In this document: positions 6,843 to 15,506 of the stretch, piece by piece | Position numbering within the stretch: position 1 is the stretch's first letter | How the letters are laid out: each line of letters starts with the position of its first letter | IMG/VR virus record: IMGVR_UViG_2563366937_000005 | Span: 1-36,493 of that record | Source: a virus | Lineage: Duplodnaviria > Heunggongvirae > Uroviricota > Caudoviricetes | Direction: 5' to 3' (one strand) | Length of the DNA: 36,493 nt | Notes under the pieces: model-generated | What the model was told of the DNA's origin: nothing | Databases searched by the model: none | The model's input: the letters and a program-made list of their open reading frames with translations, nothing else | Program-made: the position numbers and the translations under genes

Positions 6843-7535
6843 TTAATTATGTCTCTTAAGGGTTTGCGACTGACTGATTAAGACCTTTCCAAAGACCATG
6901 AATCGGTGTTCGTTTTCGCTAGTAATTCCCCATTCACGGTAAATCTGGTTATCAGAAATCACCAGCAGTTTGTCAGGAATCATTTGAAGTCTTTTAACGT
7001 ATATTTTGTCATCAAAACCAAAGACATATATACCATCACCATCAAACTGATTGATGCTGACATCAACGAAGATGAGATCTCCTGGCTCAATGGTTGGACA
7101 CATACTGTCCCCACGAACGTTGATAACTTTGATGTGATTGGCTGGTCGTCCGCCGAACATTGATACAGCATTATCAGTTCTGTATTCGATGGCATGAATC
7201 ACATCAATGACATCACCGCCCTGGATAAGGCCATTTCCCGCACTGGCACTGATATCCAGCATTTCAATACGGAACACATCCTTCACCTGCGCAACATCCT
7301 CATTATTACTGTTTTTATATACAGTATTGCTTTTGAGGGCAGAGGTAAAGAGATCAGCAATATCAACACCTAAGCTCTTGGCAATATTACTCAGTGTTTG
7401 TTCGGTAAATTGTTTCTGCTTACCCGTTTCTAAGCGCGAGATGTTCGCCGCATCTACTCCTATTGCTTCAGCGAGATCGGCGATTTTCATGTTCTTCGCT
7501 TGGCGAAGTTGTCTGACTCGGTTTCCTATGTTCAT
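6843..7535 (-). CDS. cI: CI-like prophage repressor (N-terminal XRE-type HTH plus C-terminal S24 LexA-like autopeptidase domain)
   Basis: 230 aa; N-terminal HTH (RVRQLRQAKNMKIADLAEAIGVDAANISRLETGK); C-terminal S24 motifs GDSM (VRGDSMCPTIEPGDLIFVD) and a downstream KR; divergent from the cro-like gene across an operator region. Confidence 0.85.
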   Translation of the reverse strand: MNIGNRVRQLRQAKNMKIADLAEAIGVDAANISRLETGKQKQFTEQTLSNIAKSLGVDIADLFTSALKSNTVYKNSNNEDVAQVKDVFRIEMLDISASAGNGLIQGGDVIDVIHAIEYRTDNAVSMFGGRPANHIKVINVRGDSMCPTIEPGDLIFVDVSINQFDGDGIYVFGFDDKIYVKRLQMIPDKLLVISDNQIYREWGITSENEHRFMVFGKVLISQSQTLKRHN

Positions 7536-7632: not shown

Positions 7633-7893
7633 ATGCAATCACCATTACGAAATGTGCGTAAGGCGCATGGTTTCACTTTGCAGCATGTTGCTGCGGGTGT
7701 TCAAGTCAATCCAGCGACGTTGAGTCGTATTGAGAGGCTGGAGCAGATTCCATCTATCGAGCTTGCAGAACGTTTAGCCAATTTTTTTAAGGGTGAAATC
7801 AGCGAAATGCAGATTCTTTATCCGGCACGTTTTCAATCTAGCCAAAACCAGAATGGGTTTAAACCACAGGAACAGGAGGTGAACCGTGGGTAA
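7633..7893 (+). CDS. cro: Cro-like HTH regulator (XRE family)
   Basis: 86 aa, first gene of the rightward operon; HTH segment FTLQHVAAGVQVNPATLSRIER. Confidence 0.7.
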   Translation: MQSPLRNVRKAHGFTLQHVAAGVQVNPATLSRIERLEQIPSIELAERLANFFKGEISEMQILYPARFQSSQNQNGFKPQEQEVNRG

Positions 7894-8443
7894 GCATCAC
7901 TGGAAAGTAGAAAAACAGCCTGAGTGGTACGTGAAAGCAGTCAGAAAAACTATCGCAGCGTTGCCGGGGGGTTACGCTGAAGCAGCTGACTGGCTGGATG
8001 TAACAGAGAACGCATTATTTAACCGCCTTCGTGCCGATGGCGATCAAATTTTCCCGCTGGGATGGGCAATGATTTTACAACGTGCTGGTGGCACTCACTT
8101 CATTGCTGACGCTGTGGCGCAGTCTGCAAATGGCGTCTTTGTGTCTCTTCCTGACGTCGAGGATGTGGATAACGCCGATATTAACCAGCGCCTGCTGGAA
8201 GTCATTGAACAGATTGGCAGTTATTCCAAACAGATTCGTTCGGCAATCGAAGACGGTGTGGTGGAACCGCATGAGAAGACAGCAATTAACGACGAGCTGT
8301 ATCTCTCAATTTCGAAGCTGCAGGAGCATGCAGCACTTGTCTACAAAATTTTTTGCATTTCAGAAAGTAATGACGCCCGCGAGTGTGCAGCTCCGGGCGT
8401 CGTGGCGTCGATTGCTTCTGGTTGTGGAGAAACTAACGCATGA
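7886..8443 (+). CDS. CII-like regulatory protein (CP76/CII family by position and character)
   Basis: 185-aa ORF overlapping the cro stop; in the cII position; family assignment from memory only. Confidence 0.5.
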
Positions 8444-8778: not shown

Positions 8779-8798
8779 AGGCCGGTCATGAGCACTAA
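8619..8798 (+). CDS. Candidate small protein (59 aa, TTG start) missing from the ORF track, or the true 3' part of a frameshifted gene
   Basis: AAGGAGG at 8605-8611, 7-nt spacer, TTG at 8619; translation [59 protein letters not shown] ends with a TAA that overlaps the start of the next gene. Confidence 0.35.
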
Positions 8799-9729
8799 AT
8801 TAACCGGCTATGTATGGGATGGTTGCGCTGCATCAGGCATGAAGTTATCCAGCGTGGCAATTATGGCCCGCCTGGCTGATTTCAGTAATGACGAAGGTGT
8901 GTGCTGGCCATCAATTGAAACCATTGCCCGTCAGATTGGCGCGGGGATGAGTACCGTCAGAACGGCTATCGCACGGCTGGAAGCAGAAGGCTGGTTAACG
9001 CGTAAGGCGCGTCGCCAGGGTAACCGCAATGCGTCGAATGTTTATCAGCTTAACGTTGCGAAGCTTCAGGCAGCGGCATTTTCTCAACTGTCAGATTCTG
9101 ACCCGTCAAAATCTGACGCATCAAAATCTGACCCGTCAAAATTTGATGCGTCGAAATCTGGCAAAAAAGCGGGTTTTCACCCGTCAGAATCTGGCGGGGA
9201 TCCGTCAGTAAAATCAAAACATGATCCGTCAGATAAAAAACCTTCTCGTCCGGACGCTTCGCAACCGGACACGCAGACGGCTGAACAGGATTTTTTAACT
9301 CGCCATCCTGATGCGGTTGTATTCAGCCCTAAAAAGCGCCAGTGGGGGACGCAGGATGATTTGACCTGTGCACAGTGGCTCTGGAAAAAAATCATTGCCC
9401 TGTACGAGCAGGCCGCCGAATGTGACGGCGAGGTGGTTCGTCCCAAAGAACCGAACTGGACAGCCTGGGCAAACGAAATTCGCCTGATGTGTGTGCAGGA
9501 TGGTCGTACTCACAAACAAATCTGCGAGATGTACAGCCGCGTCAGCCGCGATCCGTTCTGGTGCCGTAACGTGCTCAGCCCGTCAAAGTTGCGGGAAAAA
9601 TGGGATGAGCTTTCCCTGCGCTTATCGCCGTCCGTCAGCACGTACACCGAAAAACGCGAAGACCCGTACTTCAAAGCCAGTTACGACAACGTGGACTATA
9701 GCCAGATCCCGGCAGGATTCAGGGGATGA
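8788..9729 (+). CDS. Replication initiator (O-like; N-terminal winged-helix DNA-binding domain, C-terminal DnaT-like region) with internal iterons
   Basis: 313 aa; N-terminal HTH (WPSIETIARQIGAGMSTVRTAIARLEAEGWL); central pentapeptide repeats SKSDA/SKSDP encoded by tandem 15-bp DNA repeats; position after cII as for lambda O. Confidence 0.65.
   Translation: MSTKLTGYVWDGCAASGMKLSSVAIMARLADFSNDEGVCWPSIETIARQIGAGMSTVRTAIARLEAEGWLTRKARRQGNRNASNVYQLNVAKLQAAAFSQLSDSDPSKSDASKSDPSKFDASKSGKKAGFHPSESGGDPSVKSKHDPSDKKPSRPDASQPDTQTAEQDFLTRHPDAVVFSPKKRQWGTQDDLTCAQWLWKKIIALYEQAAECDGEVVRPKEPNWTAWANEIRLMCVQDGRTHKQICEMYSRVSRDPFWCRNVLSPSKLREKWDELSLRLSPSVSTYTEKREDPYFKASYDNVDYSQIPAGFRG
9091..9240. repeat. Iteron-like tandem repeats (five contiguous 15-bp units TCARAATCTGACSCR plus degenerate copies) inside the replication initiator gene; candidate origin of replication
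   Basis: Units at 9091-9105, 9106-9120, 9121-9135, 9136-9150, 9151-9165; further CCGTCAG copies at about 9181-9232, followed by an A-rich stretch. Confidence 0.5.
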
Positions 9730-10220
9730 TCATGAGTCTGTTAAATGACGTTCAGAAATTCATTGAAGCCCATCCGGGGTGTACTTCTGGAGACATTGCG
9801 GATGCTTTTGCAGGTTACTCACGGCAGCGCGTTCTGCAGTCTGCAAGCAAGTTACGTCAGAGTGGGCGTGTGGCTCACCGTTGTGAAGGAGATACACGCA
9901 GACATCTCCCGCGCCTGACTGAGAGAGCGCAGGAACCGGAACCACAACCGGTTCGAGAAACCAGACCTGTGCGCAATTTCTATGTCGGCACTAACGATCC
10001 ACGGGTGATTTTGTGCCTGACCCGCCAGGCTGAAGAACTGGAGTCCAGGGGCTTATACCGTCGTGCTGCAACCGTGTGGATGGCGGCATTCCGTGAAAGC
10101 CACTCCCAGCCAGAACGAAACAATTTTCTGGCGCGTCGTGAGCTGTGTTTACGGAAAAGCAGCAAGCGCGCTGTATCGAGTGATGAGTGGTATCTGTCAG
10201 GGAATTACGTGGGGGCGTAA
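9726..10220 (+). CDS. Hypothetical protein (164 aa) in the replication/nin region
   Basis: ATGA overlap with the initiator stop; its stop overlaps the next start (TAATG); no confident family assignment. Confidence 0.45.
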   Translation: MIMSLLNDVQKFIEAHPGCTSGDIADAFAGYSRQRVLQSASKLRQSGRVAHRCEGDTRRHLPRLTERAQEPEPQPVRETRPVRNFYVGTNDPRVILCLTRQAEELESRGLYRRAATVWMAAFRESHSQPERNNFLARRELCLRKSSKRAVSSDEWYLSGNYVGA

Positions 10221-10546
10221 TGACGACGTTAACTCAATGCCAGCAGCAGGTGCTGGATATGCTGATTTCTTATCAGAAAGAGCGTGGCTTTCCGCCAACC
10301 AATCAGGAGGTGGCAACCATGCTGGGATACCGTTCAGTGAATGCAGCGGTAGAGCATCTTCGCGCACTGGAGAAAAAAGGCGTCATCACGATAAAGCGTG
10401 GCGTGGCCCGGGGGATAACGCTTCATACCGCGGTGAAGGACGACGACAGCGAGGCGGTCGGGATTATCCGCGCACTGCTTGCCGGTGAGGAAAACGCAAG
10501 GCTGCGTGCAACCCACTGGTTACATGAGAGGGGCCTGAAAGTATGA
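10220..10546 (+). CDS. LexA N-terminal DNA-binding-domain homologue lacking the S24 peptidase domain
   Basis: Start at the internal ATG (MTTLTQCQQQVLDMLISYQKERGFPPTNQEVATMLGYRSVNAAVEHLRALEKKGVITIKRGVARGITL), 108 aa; aligns residue-by-residue with the E. coli LexA N-terminus ([65 protein letters not shown], from memory); no GDSM/KR protease motifs. Confidence 0.6.
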   Translation: MTTLTQCQQQVLDMLISYQKERGFPPTNQEVATMLGYRSVNAAVEHLRALEKKGVITIKRGVARGITLHTAVKDDDSEAVGIIRALLAGEENARLRATHWLHERGLKV

Positions 10547-10932
10547 AGCTGATCCTGCCTTTTCCGCCCAGCGTGAACACGTACTGGCGACACCCCAACA
10601 AAGGGGCGTTTGCTGGTAAGAGCCTGATAAACGCGGTGGGGCGAAAATTCCAGAGCGCAGCGTGCGCAGCAATAGTTGAGCAGTTACGTCGTCTGCCGAA
10701 ACCAACGTCGGCACCTGCTTCAGTGGAGATCGTGTTGTTTCCTCCGGATAACCGGATCCGCGATCTGGACAACTATAACAAGGCGCTGTTTGACGCCCTG
10801 ACCCACGCGGGTGTGTGGGAAGACGACAGTCAGGTGAAAAGAATGCTGGTGGAGTGGGGACCGGTTATCCCGGAAGGGAAGGTCGAGATCACTATCAGTA
10901 AGTACGAGAAAACGGCGGGTGCAGCCGCCTGA
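10543..10932 (+). CDS. rusA: RusA-family Holliday junction resolvase
   Basis: 129 aa; conserved RusA pattern DLDNYNKALFDALTHAGVWEDDSQV (compare E. coli RusA [25 protein letters not shown]); ATGA-coupled to the upstream gene. Confidence 0.8.
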   Translation: MKLILPFPPSVNTYWRHPNKGAFAGKSLINAVGRKFQSAACAAIVEQLRRLPKPTSAPASVEIVLFPPDNRIRDLDNYNKALFDALTHAGVWEDDSQVKRMLVEWGPVIPEGKVEITISKYEKTAGAAA

Positions 10933-10951: not shown

Positions 10952-11749
10952 ATGAATAATCTGATGGTCATTGATGGTATTGAAGTTCGTCGTGATGCTT
11001 ATGGTCGTTACAGCCTGAACGATCTGCACAGGGCTGCCGGTTCTCTGGATAAGCATAAGCCTGCATTCTGGCTCCGCAATGAGCAAACTGAACGTTTAAT
11101 AAGCGAGTTGCAGATTTGCAACTCGGTCAATATAGAGCCAGTTAACGTTATTCGTGGCGGAAATAACCAGGGGACGTATGTCTGCAAAGAACTGGTGTAT
11201 GCCTATGCAATGTGGATCAGCCCGTCATTCCATCTGAAGGTGATCCGTACTTTCGACATGGTAACCAGCACACCGGAAAAATTATCCGGACAGGCTGCTG
11301 ACAAGATGCAGGCTGGCGTGATTCTGCTGGACTTTATGCGCAGGGAGTTAAACCTGTCTAACTCTTCAGTGCTTGGTGCCTGTCAGAAACTCCAGGAGGC
11401 TGTTGGCTTACCGAATCTGGCACCGCGCTATGCCATTGATGCTCCAGCTGATGCACACGATGGCTCAAGTCGCCCGACACTGTCACTGAGTGCACTGCTG
11501 AAACAGTATGGTATCCGCCTGACGGCTAATCAGGCATATCACCAGATGGTGAAGCTGGGGATCGTCGAGCAGCGCGAACGATACAGCCGTACCGCGATTA
11601 ACAACATCAAAAAATTCTGGTCGCTGACAGCGAAAGGCTGCATGTTCGGCAAGAACATCACCAGTCCCGCAAATCCGCGCGAGACGCAGCCGCATTTCTT
11701 CGAATCCCGATTCCCTGAGCTGTTAAAGCTGCTCGATACCGTTCATTGA
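10952..11749 (+). CDS. KilA-N domain protein with C-terminal extension
   Basis: Start at the internal ATG (MNNLMVIDGIEVRRDAYGRYSLNDLHRAAG...), preceded by AGAGGAG; N-terminal KilA-N-like pattern (...RYSLNDLH...KPAFWLRNEQT...). Confidence 0.65.
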   Translation: MNNLMVIDGIEVRRDAYGRYSLNDLHRAAGSLDKHKPAFWLRNEQTERLISELQICNSVNIEPVNVIRGGNNQGTYVCKELVYAYAMWISPSFHLKVIRTFDMVTSTPEKLSGQAADKMQAGVILLDFMRRELNLSNSSVLGACQKLQEAVGLPNLAPRYAIDAPADAHDGSSRPTLSLSALLKQYGIRLTANQAYHQMVKLGIVEQRERYSRTAINNIKKFWSLTAKGCMFGKNITSPANPRETQPHFFESRFPELLKLLDTVH

Positions 11750-11750
11750 G

Positions 11751-12746
11751 GTGACCGTGAGAGCACTACTGACCCCTGAAATTGCCCCGCGTATGGGGAT
11801 CGTATTGTTCAGGCCAGGTTCAGAGCTGATGCCCCTGTTTATGCAGGGGCGTGTCCTGCTGGAGCCTGAGCCGGAGCGTTATTCATCTTTCGCCAGTGGT
11901 GCCGTTCCGGCGGCATCACAACCGCTGGCGGATGATCCTGCCGTTCGGGCCGTGTTCCGCGATGAGGCAGTGATCCGTCGTGCTGGTGGCGTGGAATGTC
12001 TTGAAAGCTGGTTACTTCGTGAAAAAGGCTGCCAGTGGCCTCATTCCGACTGGCACAGCGAGAACATGACCACAATGCGACACGCTCCGGGTGCAATCCG
12101 TCTGTGCTGGCACTGCGATAACCAGCTGCGCGATCAGTTCACGGAACGGCTGGAATCAATGGCAACGGATAACTGTGCCCGCTGGGTGTTGTCTGTTGTG
12201 CGTCGGGATCTCGGTTTTGATGATAGTCACGTTGTGACAATGCCGGAACTATGCTGGTGGCTGGTTCGTAATGACCTGGCGGATGCCTTACCGGAAAGTG
12301 CAGCCCGTAAGGCACTGAGATTACCGAAGCCTGTTGTGCCGTCTGTCACCCGGGAAAGTGACCTTGTTCCTTCGGTTCCTGCCACCAGCATCATCCAGGA
12401 TAAGGCGAAAAAGGTGCTGGCGCTGAAAGTGGAGCCGGAGTCGCCGGAGTCTTTTATGTTACGCCCCAAACGTCGCCGCTGGGTTAATGAAAAGTACACG
12501 CGCTGGGTTAAGACACAGCCGTGTGCATGTTGTGGAAAGCCTGCTGATGATCCCCACCACCTGATAGGTCACGGTCAGGGTGGAATGGGAACAAAAGCGC
12601 ATGACCTTTTTGTGTTGCCTTTGTGCAGAAAGCATCACGACGAGCTGCATGCGGATACCGTGGCATTTGAAGAGAAGTATGGCTCCCAGCTGGAGCTGAT
12701 ATTTCGTTTTATCGATCGTGCGCTGGCAATTGGCGTGCTGGCCTGA
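11751..12746 (+). CDS. DUF968-like nin-region protein with C-terminal Cys/His (HNH-like zinc-binding) motif
   Basis: 331 aa, GTG start; C-terminus contains CACCGKPADDPHHLIGHGQGGMGTKAHDLFVLPLCRKHHDELH; family assignment from memory. Confidence 0.5.
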   Translation: MTVRALLTPEIAPRMGIVLFRPGSELMPLFMQGRVLLEPEPERYSSFASGAVPAASQPLADDPAVRAVFRDEAVIRRAGGVECLESWLLREKGCQWPHSDWHSENMTTMRHAPGAIRLCWHCDNQLRDQFTERLESMATDNCARWVLSVVRRDLGFDDSHVVTMPELCWWLVRNDLADALPESAARKALRLPKPVVPSVTRESDLVPSVPATSIIQDKAKKVLALKVEPESPESFMLRPKRRRWVNEKYTRWVKTQPCACCGKPADDPHHLIGHGQGGMGTKAHDLFVLPLCRKHHDELHADTVAFEEKYGSQLELIFRFIDRALAIGVLA

Positions 12747-12763
12747 TTTTGTGGAGAAAGTTG

Positions 12764-13108
12764 ATGCGTGATATGTATGAAGTTTTAGACCGCTGGGGAG
12801 CGTGGGCTGCAGCAGATAACAGTGGTGTGGACTGGCAGCCGATAGCAGCAGGCTTTAAGGGGCTTTTACCTCATGGTAAAAAAATACGCCTTCAGTGTGA
12901 TGATGATGAAGGCATCATGATAGACGGCTGTGTTGCCCGCTTGTGTAAGTATAAACCAGACGAATATGAGCTGATCATTGCTCACTTCGTTATAGGTATT
13001 TCACTGCGTTCTATTGCGAAGAGACGCAGATGCTCAGATGGAACAATCCGGAAGCAATTGCAGACTGCGTTAGGTTTCATTAATGGGGTTATGTACATGC
13101 TCAAGTAA
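12764..13108 (+). CDS. Late-gene antiterminator Q (QuuD-like)
   Basis: Start at ATG 12764 (GGAG plus 7-nt spacer); MRDMYEVLDRWGAWAA...IAAGFKGL...CDDDEGIMIDGCVARL...CSDGTIRKQLQTALGFINGVM parallels DLP12 QuuD (VLERWGAWAA...IAAGFKGL...CCDDDAMIICGCMARL...CSDGYIGKRLQKAEGIIEGM, from memory). Confidence 0.75.
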   Translation: MRDMYEVLDRWGAWAAADNSGVDWQPIAAGFKGLLPHGKKIRLQCDDDEGIMIDGCVARLCKYKPDEYELIIAHFVIGISLRSIAKRRRCSDGTIRKQLQTALGFINGVMYMLK

Positions 13109-14327
13109 TATTTGGCATTAATTTAAATAAAATACCGATGATGCCTATGAATGTAGGCATCCATGCTAGTGATAATAAACTGTCAAGCACCTTATGACAA
13201 AAATCCTCATTGTCATTTAATTTTTTAATAGCCTCTTCTAAGCTCTCTTTAAGATCGCTGGTGTCATCCTTTATTCTATATCTTAATTGTCCAAAAAGTA
13301 TTTCTTTAGAGTGTGAAATACGAGCGAGTTGTTTTTTTTGTGACACAATCATTGCAGATGTTATTATTGCTGTGATAATCAATCCAATTAAAGCAATAAT
13401 CCAATCAGTTTTTGTTGTTAATTTGAAAATAGCAATTGAACCAGCTAGTGAAATAGGTATTGCAAGAGCTTTGTTAGAAATTTCTGAAATTATTTTTGAC
13501 AGTTTTTCTGAGTAATCGAGTTCAGCATCAACAACTTCTTTCCTTGCTTTATGAAAAGAAAATGCCGACATATAAGCAGCTAAGTTGTTCGTATAAAGTT
13601 CGCATATGAAATCCCACTTGTTAATTAACTCGACAAAGGAATTTCCATTTTTATTAACATACTCAATAACTGTGTTTCTGAAAGTGTTAATCTTTTCAAT
13701 GTGATGGGCATCAGTAGTAGCTTCACTACTTACTAATGTTTTAACTAACTGAGTATTTACTGTTTTATCATTAAAAATTTCTTCTGTAATATTTGTTTCA
13801 ATTACAGCAGAAGAAGATTTAGACTCTGAGTTTAAAATAAAGACTAAACGATAAAATGTACCTTTGCTATCTTTTTTTATATCATGGAAATGAGCAAGCA
13901 TGGAAAGAGCATTGATTAGCTCACAAATGTCCTCAATTTTTTGGATATAAGAAGGTTTTGGTGTTTCTAATGAATAGAAATCATCCTCTATAATATAGAA
14001 ATACTCTGGCATTATGCCTTTCTTGAGCGTGTTTATTTTTACAAACTCGTTTTTATTTTTATAAAAACGATTCGCACTTCCTTGTGAAATTTTAAACGAG
14101 TATGTAAGAAAATTTCCCTTTTCAGGAAAGTCTTCATAATCATAAATTAAATGACCATCCACCTCTATTTCGTCAGCTGTACCAGCTTGAAAAGTAGGGT
14201 TCAAAATTCTTTTGAACAATGATTTTACGTCTGCATTATAAGCTATACGCGCAGAAAACTTAGCCCCGTCAAAATGAGGATAGCTTGATAATCTATACAG
14301 ATTAACTATTATACTAAAATCATTCAT
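13101..14327 (-). CDS. Hypothetical 408-aa protein with two C-terminal transmembrane helices (second gene of the AT-rich cassette; candidate membrane effector)
   Basis: ATG at 14327 overlaps the upstream gene stop (ATGA); about 285-aa soluble N-terminal region with no motif I recognise; hydrophobic helices LAIPISLAGSIAIFKL...WIIALIGLIITAIITSAMIV and LLSLAWMPTFIGIIGILFKLM; 3' end overlaps the convergent Q stop by 8 nt; strongly AT-rich. Confidence 0.6.
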   Translation of the reverse strand: MNDFSIIVNLYRLSSYPHFDGAKFSARIAYNADVKSLFKRILNPTFQAGTADEIEVDGHLIYDYEDFPEKGNFLTYSFKISQGSANRFYKNKNEFVKINTLKKGIMPEYFYIIEDDFYSLETPKPSYIQKIEDICELINALSMLAHFHDIKKDSKGTFYRLVFILNSESKSSSAVIETNITEEIFNDKTVNTQLVKTLVSSEATTDAHHIEKINTFRNTVIEYVNKNGNSFVELINKWDFICELYTNNLAAYMSAFSFHKARKEVVDAELDYSEKLSKIISEISNKALAIPISLAGSIAIFKLTTKTDWIIALIGLIITAIITSAMIVSQKKQLARISHSKEILFGQLRYRIKDDTSDLKESLEEAIKKLNDNEDFCHKVLDSLLSLAWMPTFIGIIGILFKLMPNIT

Positions 14328-15472
14328 TCTTTATCTTCTTCATTACTCGGGTTATCAGTTTCTTTCAACGCTCTTCTTATCTTAGTTAATGCTTCAACAG
14401 GCAAATTATTAAATGTTAGGCTTTGGTTTTCGTCATCATAATATATTTTAGCATCAGTTGTGACACCGAGTAAATCCTTGTCGAAGTGAAAGCTCAATGA
14501 TGGGGTTTTATATATCACATTGCGGATTTTATCTAAGGAGTTTTTATTGATTACGAACTCTGATGGGATTCTGACTTCCTCACTATTGAGGTGTTTCATT
14601 AATTTATCAACAAGTTCTGTTTTTTCTTCCTCTTTTAAATCGGACATATGGCCTGAAGCAAGCGATTCGATATCAGAAAGCCTTGCAGAGTGCTCGTTGT
14701 CAAATTGCTTTTCTAAGTATTTGATAACATCATTTCTAAATGACTCTGCTTGATTTTTTAAAAGAGGTTCTTTCTTAAAGAAACGCCTTATTTCATCTGG
14801 TAACTTACGGGTTGCACCTGCTGAAGCAATCCCCTTGTCACATCCTAATGCTGCTATAAAATATGCTGCCGCTGACTGTCCCGTAGTTTTGCTTATAAAG
14901 CTTAGATAACTTAAGTCTGTTTTTTTTAAGTCATCTGCTTTTTGGTATTCTTCATAATATCTGAAATTTATTTTTGCTGCTTGGTTAATATTGCCAAGTT
15001 CTAAGTGAATCATTTCCTCTGGCTCTAAATTTTCACTAATAGTTACGCCATTAGTTTTTTTGATCATTGTAACCAATAGATAACGGAAACCAGATAAAAT
15101 ATAATCAGTAAAAACAACATATCCTCCAGAAGCCCAAATCTGCTCTTGAGCAGATTTATACATTTGTTTCATAACTTCCTTCGATAATTCAATGAAATCA
15201 CTTGAAACAGATTGTTGAACTAAAGAGTATTTATGAAATAGTTCTGGTATAGGGCCTTGCTTTGTTTTATTTTTAATAAAAACACCATAATGCGCTGAGT
15301 TCCCTTTTGAACCATACAAATCAATAACACCGTCTACTAATTTTTTTACTATATCATTTGTTTTATCTAGTTCTGTATCACGAAGATTGTATGGTTTGGA
15401 GTGATCGAAGTCTTTATTAGATTCTTTTAAGAGCTCATGAACGATTACGTGGCGTATGCTTACTTTGCTCAT
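14324..15472 (-). CDS. NdpA/YejK-like nucleoid-associated protein homologue (NA37 family) (first gene of the AT-rich cassette)
   Basis: Start probably at the second ATG ([14 protein letters not shown], compare YejK MSLDINQIALHQL); the track ORF begins 18 nt upstream at 15490. Similarity to YejK along the whole length, e.g. [22 protein letters not shown] vs [36 protein letters not shown] vs [32 protein letters not shown] vs RYLTFLKGRVGRKVADFF, C-terminal [18 protein letters not shown] vs LTIKGTPPNLRDQLQRR (YejK from memory). Confidence 0.6.
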   Translation of the reverse strand: [382 protein letters not shown]

Positions 15473-15506
15473 TTTTTTGGTCAATTCCATGCGGTTAAGC
15501 TAACAA

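Follow-up and report, generated by a model that had tools for sequence, protein, structure and literature searches.

A LexA-type DNA-binding protein without a protease domain in the nin region of a lambdoid prophage

The DNA analysed here over its whole length of 36,493 nucleotides (nt; IMG/VR record IMGVR_UViG_2563366937_000005, positions 1 to 36,493; hereafter the window) is a lambdoid prophage integrated beside proA and tRNA-Thr. On its plus strand, at positions 10220-10546, it encodes a protein of 108 amino acids that carries a LexA-type winged-helix DNA-binding domain (DBD) without the S24 protease domain. We confirm that this relationship is real and far beyond chance. As no S24 domain is present, RecA*-stimulated self-cleavage of this LexA-like protein is impossible. 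We tentatively favour a reading in which it is a LexA-derived, RecA-insensitive phage regulator comparable to gp6 of the tectivirus GIL01, with an operator that would be related to the SOS box but not identical with it.

Domain structure and fold of the LexA-like protein

The open reading frame (ORF) extends from an ATG at 10220 to a TGA at 10546. A preliminary description made from the sequence had likened its product to the winged-helix N-terminal domain of host LexA, and the profile search bears this out with highly significant similarity: PF01726 (LexA_DNA_bind) is matched with an E-value of 2.9e-19 and 69 bits compared to a cutoff of 23.7, and the profile is covered from end to end (1-65 of 65). 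In a phmmer search of the PDB sequences the DBD of E. coli LexA (1lea) is matched at E 6e-16, residues 2-70 aligning to residues 2-70 without gaps and with 49-51% identity (34 of 69 positions by hand count). This is further supported by an AlphaFold model (19 family members, predicted local distance difference test score, pLDDT, of 80), which shows the LexA topology of three helices followed by a two-strand wing and superimposes on 1lea and 3jso with a root-mean-square deviation of 1.1-1.3 Å over 66-68 residues at 50-52% identity. Based on PF01726, the model and the superposition, the winged helix-turn-helix (HTH) comprises amino acids 1-68 (10220-10423, plus strand), with helices at 6-22, 28-35 and 40-52 and strands at 56-58 and 66-68.

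The absence of the protease, also claimed in the preliminary description, is equally clear. A Pfam search gives no match to Peptidase_S24 (PF00717) in the 108-residue protein, which ends at residue 108 and is missing the C-terminal peptidase and dimerisation domain with its Ser119-Lys156 dyad. Of the 203 positions of TIGR00498, the NCBIfam equivalog for lexA, only 1-91 are matched, with 70.5 bits against a cutoff of 110.95. Lacking an S24 domain and a conserved cleavage site and scoring below this threshold, the protein falls outside LexA proper and, judged by its sequence, belongs to PF01726 and to PHROG 362. The latter family ('transcriptional repressor', 106 positions) is matched with E 1.2e-59 by residues 1-108 over profile positions 1-106 of 106, tail included, and it is also matched by all Enterobacter, Cronobacter and Klebsiella relatives tested. 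The identical ORF is labelled 'LexA family protein/transcriptional regulator' in RefSeq, and other database labels read 'LexA family transcriptional regulator', 'LexA DNA binding domain protein' and 'LexA-like protein'.

Beyond the DBD, the model contains a low-confidence linker (amino acids 71-74) and then two helices at amino acids 75-87 and 93-102 (10442-10525, plus strand) with a pLDDT of 87-88. The preliminary description had the protein stop before the cleavable linker of LexA; while the S24 domain is indeed absent, the alignment reaches LexA Ala84-Gly85, and the DBD is followed by a conserved tail of about 35 amino acids that contains this helical hairpin and is missing from LexA. The tail pattern EAvxxIRALLAxEENARxRAxxWLxxRG is kept down to 39-50% identity in prophage relatives from Cronobacter, Kosakonia, Enterobacter, Cedecea, Klebsiella and Salmonella, and a comparison with solved structures gives no fold match outside the DBD. 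From its modelled fold and the conservation of its pattern, the hairpin may act as a dimerisation or partner-binding element. Together with the loss of Glu44 described below, it sets the protein apart, at the sequence level, among the phage-encoded truncated LexA homologues in which we place it. A different route to a 'dimeric' protein built of DBDs is seen in several database proteins (e.g. P0132 and P0156), where two LexA DBDs stand in tandem in one chain.

When the HMMER alignment is extended past the DBD, Ala88-Gly89 falls on the scissile bond Ala84-Gly85 of LexA. In close relatives lysine or asparagine takes the place of this glycine, and the model shows a helix here; Ala88-Gly89 is therefore not a cleavage site, and a role of the protein as a substrate for cleavage in trans was rejected.

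Operon position, conservation and distribution

The gene lies between an O-like replication gene (8788-9729, plus strand) and the antiterminator gene Q (12749-13108, plus strand), which identifies the region as nin-type, as the preliminary description had it. Its start overlaps the stop codon of the upstream neighbour, a PerC-family (YfdN) regulator gene (9726-10220, plus strand), in the sequence TAATG, and its stop overlaps by 4 nt (ATGA) the start of the gene for a RusA Holliday-junction resolvase (10543-10932, plus strand). No promoter-like (sigma-70-like) site is found upstream of the gene within the operon. Because of the overlaps on both sides and the missing promoter-like site, the gene is most simply read as a delayed-early member of the rightward (pR-type) operon that would be silent in the lysogen and expressed after derepression. 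Such timing argues against a protein that gates the induction of its own prophage. It is still compatible with an influence on SOS genes of the host, on other prophages in the cell or on phage genes with LexA boxes.

We compared about 296 loci from four subfamilies, named after the E. coli (80 loci), Enterobacter (80), Cronobacter (56) and Klebsiella (80; L220-L299) types. In the first three, rusA directly follows the LexA-like gene in 215 of 216 loci, with a median offset equal to the gene length (+314 to +323 nt); the exception is one locus of the Cronobacter group with rusA at +1084. A gene for a DUF968/YdfU HNH-type nuclease (11751-12746, plus strand, in the window) is a near-constant downstream companion, followed by Q, in 283 of the 296 loci across all four subfamilies, and is directly adjacent in the Klebsiella type. 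While 175 phage records contain DUF968, the LexA-like gene is found in 63 (tblastn, E<=1e-3) and is therefore an optional passenger of the DUF968-bearing nin module. A Dam (N6-adenine) methyltransferase cassette directly precedes the LexA-like gene in 54/80 E. coli-type loci, where it follows yfdN (compare L001, 9911-10564), and in 45/56 Cronobacter-type loci; it is cleanly missing at 10218-10222 of the window, where the TAATG overlap is left.

The LexA-like gene is present in 2233 of 5426 complete E. coli genomes (41%), and viral or prophage contigs carry all four subfamilies. The 80 E. coli-type loci from IMG/VR hold 42 distinct nucleotide alleles, over which the DBD is invariant and amino acid changes are confined to residues 72-106. 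For the 15 most frequent of these alleles the ratio of nonsynonymous to synonymous substitution rates (dN/dS) compared to the window copy is 0.02-0.08; the gene is under strong purifying selection.

Several of the matched phages are medically relevant: the Shigella serotype-converting phages SfV (orf42, 'unknown'), SfII and SfIV, the cdtI phage, all 15 Stx2c phages among the matches listed, Stx2a_1447, Stx2a_WGPS2 and an Stx2k phage; mEp460 and mEp390 (47% identity) also carry the gene. The gene travels with one type of early/replication module. In O157, replication proteins divide the Stx2a phages into subtypes with which toxin output is correlated (PMC4645166), and a regulator encoded in this module is for this reason a candidate modifier of induction and toxin production, the link being correlative only.

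The remaining early genes around this module are a cI-like repressor gene (HTH_3 and Peptidase_S24; 6843-7535, minus strand), a cro-like gene (7633-7893, plus strand), CII/YmfL (7886-8443, plus strand) and, between rusA and the DUF968 gene, a KilA-N gene (about 10952-11749, plus strand). Inverted and direct repeats that resemble iterons (GTCAGATTCTGAC, GTCAAAATCTGAC and similar) at 9090-9152 within the O-like gene coincide with a repetitive DPSKSDASKSD segment of its product and are probably the phage origin. The YfdN-like protein (9726-10220) has a MarR-like winged helix at its N-terminus (PHROG 1687, weak) and a PerC/ANR-type domain at its C-terminus; prophage regulators of the PerC family are activators of virulence genes in pathogenic E. 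coli. Two leftward genes between Q and the lysis cassette (13101-15490, minus strand) encode a 408-amino-acid protein, for which Pfam and PADLOC give no match, and a 388-amino-acid homologue of the NA37 nucleoid-associated protein, and are probably cargo (moron) genes. A defence role was rejected: the only PADLOC match of the LexA-like gene is marginal (CARF3--CARF, E 3.6e-4), and the adjacent cargo genes have no match.

DNA recognition and the search for an operator

In LexA, the residues Ser39, Asn41, Ala42, Glu44 and Glu45 contact the DNA (PMC3091678). Alignment with LexA places the recognition-helix segment of the phage protein at S39-V40-N41-A42-A43-V44-E45-H46 (10334-10357, plus strand; S-P-N-A-A-E-E-H in LexA). 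The conservation of helix-3 contacts, named in the preliminary description as a check, is therefore partial: Ser39, Asn41, Ala42 and Glu45 are retained, while Glu44 and also Pro40 are replaced by valine. Among the aligned short relatives, Glu is never found at position 44, which is occupied by V, A, T, F, L or Y, whereas E. coli LexA and three sequences in these alignments that appear to be LexA fragments keep NAAEEH with Glu44. The segment moreover differs between the subfamilies, reading SVNAAVEH in the E. coli type, SPNAAAEH in Enterobacter, SPNAATDM in Cronobacter, SSNAVLLH in Klebsiella and SQNTVFIH in Salmonella, though every named host belongs to the Enterobacteriaceae. These hosts share one SOS box. 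In a pure LexA mimic the recognition helix of the host should be preserved, and the variation looks more like diverging specificities.

In the reading that we favour, the protein would be made as a delayed-early product of the rightward operon, and its N-terminal 68 residues would read a dyad DNA site. The C-terminal hairpin would stand in for the S24 domain by pairing two subunits, possibly helped by contacts between the DBDs as on LexA-bound DNA. LexA forms an extensive interface between its N-terminal domains (NTDs) on operator DNA (PMC3159453), and by analogy such an interface could help a protein consisting of little more than a DBD to measure the spacing of half-sites. Having neither a protease domain nor a conserved Ala-Gly, the protein would stay DNA-bound while host LexA is destroyed. 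Its operator would be related to the SOS box and probably shifted from it, given the loss of Glu44 throughout the family, and its action would fall in lytic growth, as a phage-specific transcription regulator in the manner of GIL01 gp6 and not as a straight copy of LexA.

Several observations weigh against this reading. A repeated operator was not found: no credible 6+6 or 5+5 inverted dyad occurs more than once in the window, and the inverted repeats between 5700 and 16200 are, apart from hairpins, just the iterons of the O-like gene and a palindrome of 20 bp within the KilA-N gene, none of them a credible operator. When half-sites spaced by N8 were compared with those spaced by N6, N7, N9 and N10 across the four subfamilies, no half-site other than CTGT was enriched; CTGT itself is clear in the Klebsiella group alone, and the remaining signals are noise-like. 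With four of the five base contacts of LexA retained, the E. coli type, whose helix 3 is the most LexA-like, may bind a canonical SOS box, and recognition of a CTGT-type half-site is plausible from its sequence. The model that suggests a pairing hairpin is that of a monomer, with a predicted template modelling score (pTM) of 0.55. Finally, GIL01 and Bam35 are absent among the 40 of 63 phage records listed (tblastn, E<=1e-3), so that the analogy with gp6 is functional only.

The KilA-N palindrome, GAGTTGCAGATTTGCAACTC at 11105-11124, is near-perfect, and was rejected as a candidate operator since it is present in only 26/80 E. coli-type loci and in none of the Enterobacter and Klebsiella groups. 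In 10 relatives a near-identical copy is intergenic and directly precedes the SOS box in front of a KilA-N variant; the palindrome may mark a point of module exchange or serve as a binding site.

SOS boxes and alternative roles

The strongest alternative, which we consider possible but rather doubtful, is a true LexA mimic: an uncleavable protein that binds CTGT-N8-ACAG and re-represses LexA-box promoters once host LexA is gone. Its targets would be host SOS genes, the LexA-controlled antirepressor, dinI and methyltransferase genes of its own or of co-resident prophages, and a box within cI. The four LexA residues kept in helix 3 and the 49-51% identity of the DBD are consistent with such a role, and the replacement of Glu44 by valine, by which an acidic residue is gone from the recognition helix, could raise the affinity for DNA.

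A mimic would find a site in the window. The preliminary description proposed a search of the prophage for CTGT-N8-ACAG, and this yields a single perfect box, TACTGTTTTTATATACAGTA at 7307-7326, which equals the textbook consensus TACTGTATATATATACAGTA at 18 of 20 positions and is a candidate binding site for LexA or the LexA-like protein. When one mismatch is allowed, the window contains 21 matches compared to 11.5 +/- 3.4 expected. The perfect box lies within the cI-like gene, in the part encoding the linker between the HTH and S24 domains, and is found in 37 of 37 homologues with at least 50% amino acid identity; it also stands at about 7468 in locus L002 and about 7455 in L003. Its CTGT and ACAG are invariant over at least 10 distinct 20-nt versions, while the surrounding linker is otherwise variable in both nucleotide and protein sequence. 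The box might serve LexA as a roadblock, or it might belong to an internal or antisense promoter under SOS control; a literature search found no paper describing an SOS box inside cI. The same box occurs in the cI genes of Salmonella phage ST64B and Klebsiella phage 1 LV-2017, both without the LexA-like gene. A dependence of the box on this gene was therefore rejected; the box belongs to the cI family in question, and host LexA suffices to explain it.

Boxes near the LexA-like gene are frequent in two of the subfamilies. Within 8 kb of it, 46/80 E. coli-type and 75/80 Klebsiella-type loci have one or more good boxes, and the density of near-consensus boxes is 5.6 and 8.0 per 100 kb, respectively, compared to 0.2-0.3 in shuffled sequence, although homologous loci are not independent. 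In 10 E. coli-type loci (L008, 8765) a near-consensus box precedes a 271-amino-acid KilA-N variant located after rusA, apparently an antirepressor-like gene under LexA control, and in 24 loci (L010, 12598) a box is found at the extreme 5' end of a 350-amino-acid DNA methyltransferase ORF (MKNTVKINSV...); the window has neither. In the Klebsiella type an SOS-related gene cluster is present: in L220 (7049-8498) a UmuD-like gene (PHROG 3469) and a terminator are followed by the SOS-box promoter TACTGTTTATTTATACAGT(A/G), a dinI-like gene (Pfam DinI, 1.3e-25), orf96 and the LexA-like gene, and 64 of 80 loci carry one of the two commonest versions of this box. The stretch from dinI to the putative ATG of the LexA-like gene contains no terminator-like site, so that this gene may be SOS-inducible in these relatives.

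Against the mimic stands the recognition helix, in which no relative keeps the contact residue Glu44 and valine replaces Pro40. Helix 3 is even most divergent in the Klebsiella subfamily, whose gene lies within an SOS cluster. SOS boxes are rare near the gene in the Enterobacter (8/80) and Cronobacter (5/56) types; the association with SOS circuitry is suggestive and not general. Moreover, gp6 sets a precedent of a protein with comparable identity to host LexA that reads a different site. We regard it as unlikely that the protein is a RecA-proof SOS-box binder that is turned on after induction and re-silences the LexA regulon where LexA has been destroyed. Were it one, it would shut down the SOS functions of the host as well as the antirepressor and dinI modules that rival prophages in the same cell keep under LexA control, and renewed transcription of cI would be blocked at its conserved internal box. 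It would amount to a phage-borne 'SOS off-switch' in about 40% of E. coli strains, including Stx2c lysogens.

A role outside transcription is quite improbable. Here the protein would be a DNA-binding accessory of RusA or of the DUF968/YdfU HNH nuclease, e.g. targeting or restraining them via its helical tail, as might be suggested by the near-invariant adjacency of rusA, with its 4-nt overlap in the window, and by DUF968 downstream in nearly all loci. Such synteny is expected anyway for a co-inherited nin module, and DUF968, found in far more phage records than the LexA-like gene, functions without it. One database protein, P0158, does fuse a LexA DBD to the C-terminus of the DUF968 HNH protein; it is a singleton cluster from one contig that lacks the tail, is probably a deletion product and was not used as evidence. 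To our knowledge, sequence-specific winged HTH domains of the LexA-like family are known only as transcription regulators. Least probable is a decoy or remnant, i.e. bait that titrates RecA* or the LexA protease site, or the leftover of a captured lexA fragment: the LexA alignment does run through the cleavage-site region including Ala-Gly, but the lysine or asparagine in relatives and a helix in place of an extended cleavage loop speak against bait, as does the location of the RecA* and dimer contacts of LexA in its C-terminal domain (PMC3159453), and the low dN/dS and the presence in 41% of complete E. coli genomes speak against decay.

Comparison with known systems

With the NTD of E. coli LexA (1lea, 3jso, PF01726) the protein shares the fold, HTH and wing, and the identical residues Ser39, Asn41, Ala42 and Glu45. 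It differs in lacking the S24 domain and a conserved Ala-Gly, in the E44V and P40V replacements and in the additional two-helix tail, and while lexA is an autoregulated chromosomal gene, the LexA-like protein is encoded in a phage early operon.

Non-cleavable (Ind-) LexA mutants and the LexA 1-84 fragment likewise exercise the DNA-binding function of LexA beyond removal by RecA*, and the natural NTD fragment keeps a weaker binding to operators. These forms are derived from the host and read the canonical box, whereas the LexA-like family evolves separately with an altered recognition helix. Cleavage of LexA lowers its affinity and exposes degradation signals for ClpXP and Lon (PMC3159453); the 1-84 fragment presents a …VAA end, in contrast to the …RGLKV C-terminus of the LexA-like protein.

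The SOS boxes in front of the KilA-N, dinI-like and methyltransferase genes of relatives resemble the LexA-controlled prophage modules with Gifsy-, 186- or N15-type antirepressors and dinI-like genes. These modules use host LexA, and the described circuits include no phage-encoded protein of LexA type (PMC8044961). The searched literature contains no functional study of the LexA-like phage family, only annotation tables; a survey of Stx phages lists a pfam01726 protein family without comment (PMC8136144).

The closest functional parallel is gp6 of GIL01, a tectivirus of Bacillus thuringiensis. This truncated LexA homologue is 44% identical to the DBD of host LexA and has been shown experimentally to bind a GaCACAn-nTGTGaC palindrome at P3 and to activate the late promoter (PMC6182141). 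Both proteins are products of phage early genes, consist essentially of a LexA DBD with about 44-50% identity to that of the host and are uncleavable, and the LexA-like protein would act, as gp6 does, while host LexA is inactivated. Unlike gp6, which comes from a tectivirus of a Gram-positive host, the LexA-like family has a distinct conserved tail and is known here from its sequence. A further difference concerns the target, since gp6 activates a late promoter and lambdoid late genes already rely on the Q antiterminator. Should the LexA-like protein bind SOS boxes, phages would have in it a means of altering the response of the host to DNA damage and of competing with other prophages. If it has an operator of its own, it would be the enterobacterial counterpart of gp6, and phages would have repeatedly domesticated the LexA DBD with new dimerisation modules.

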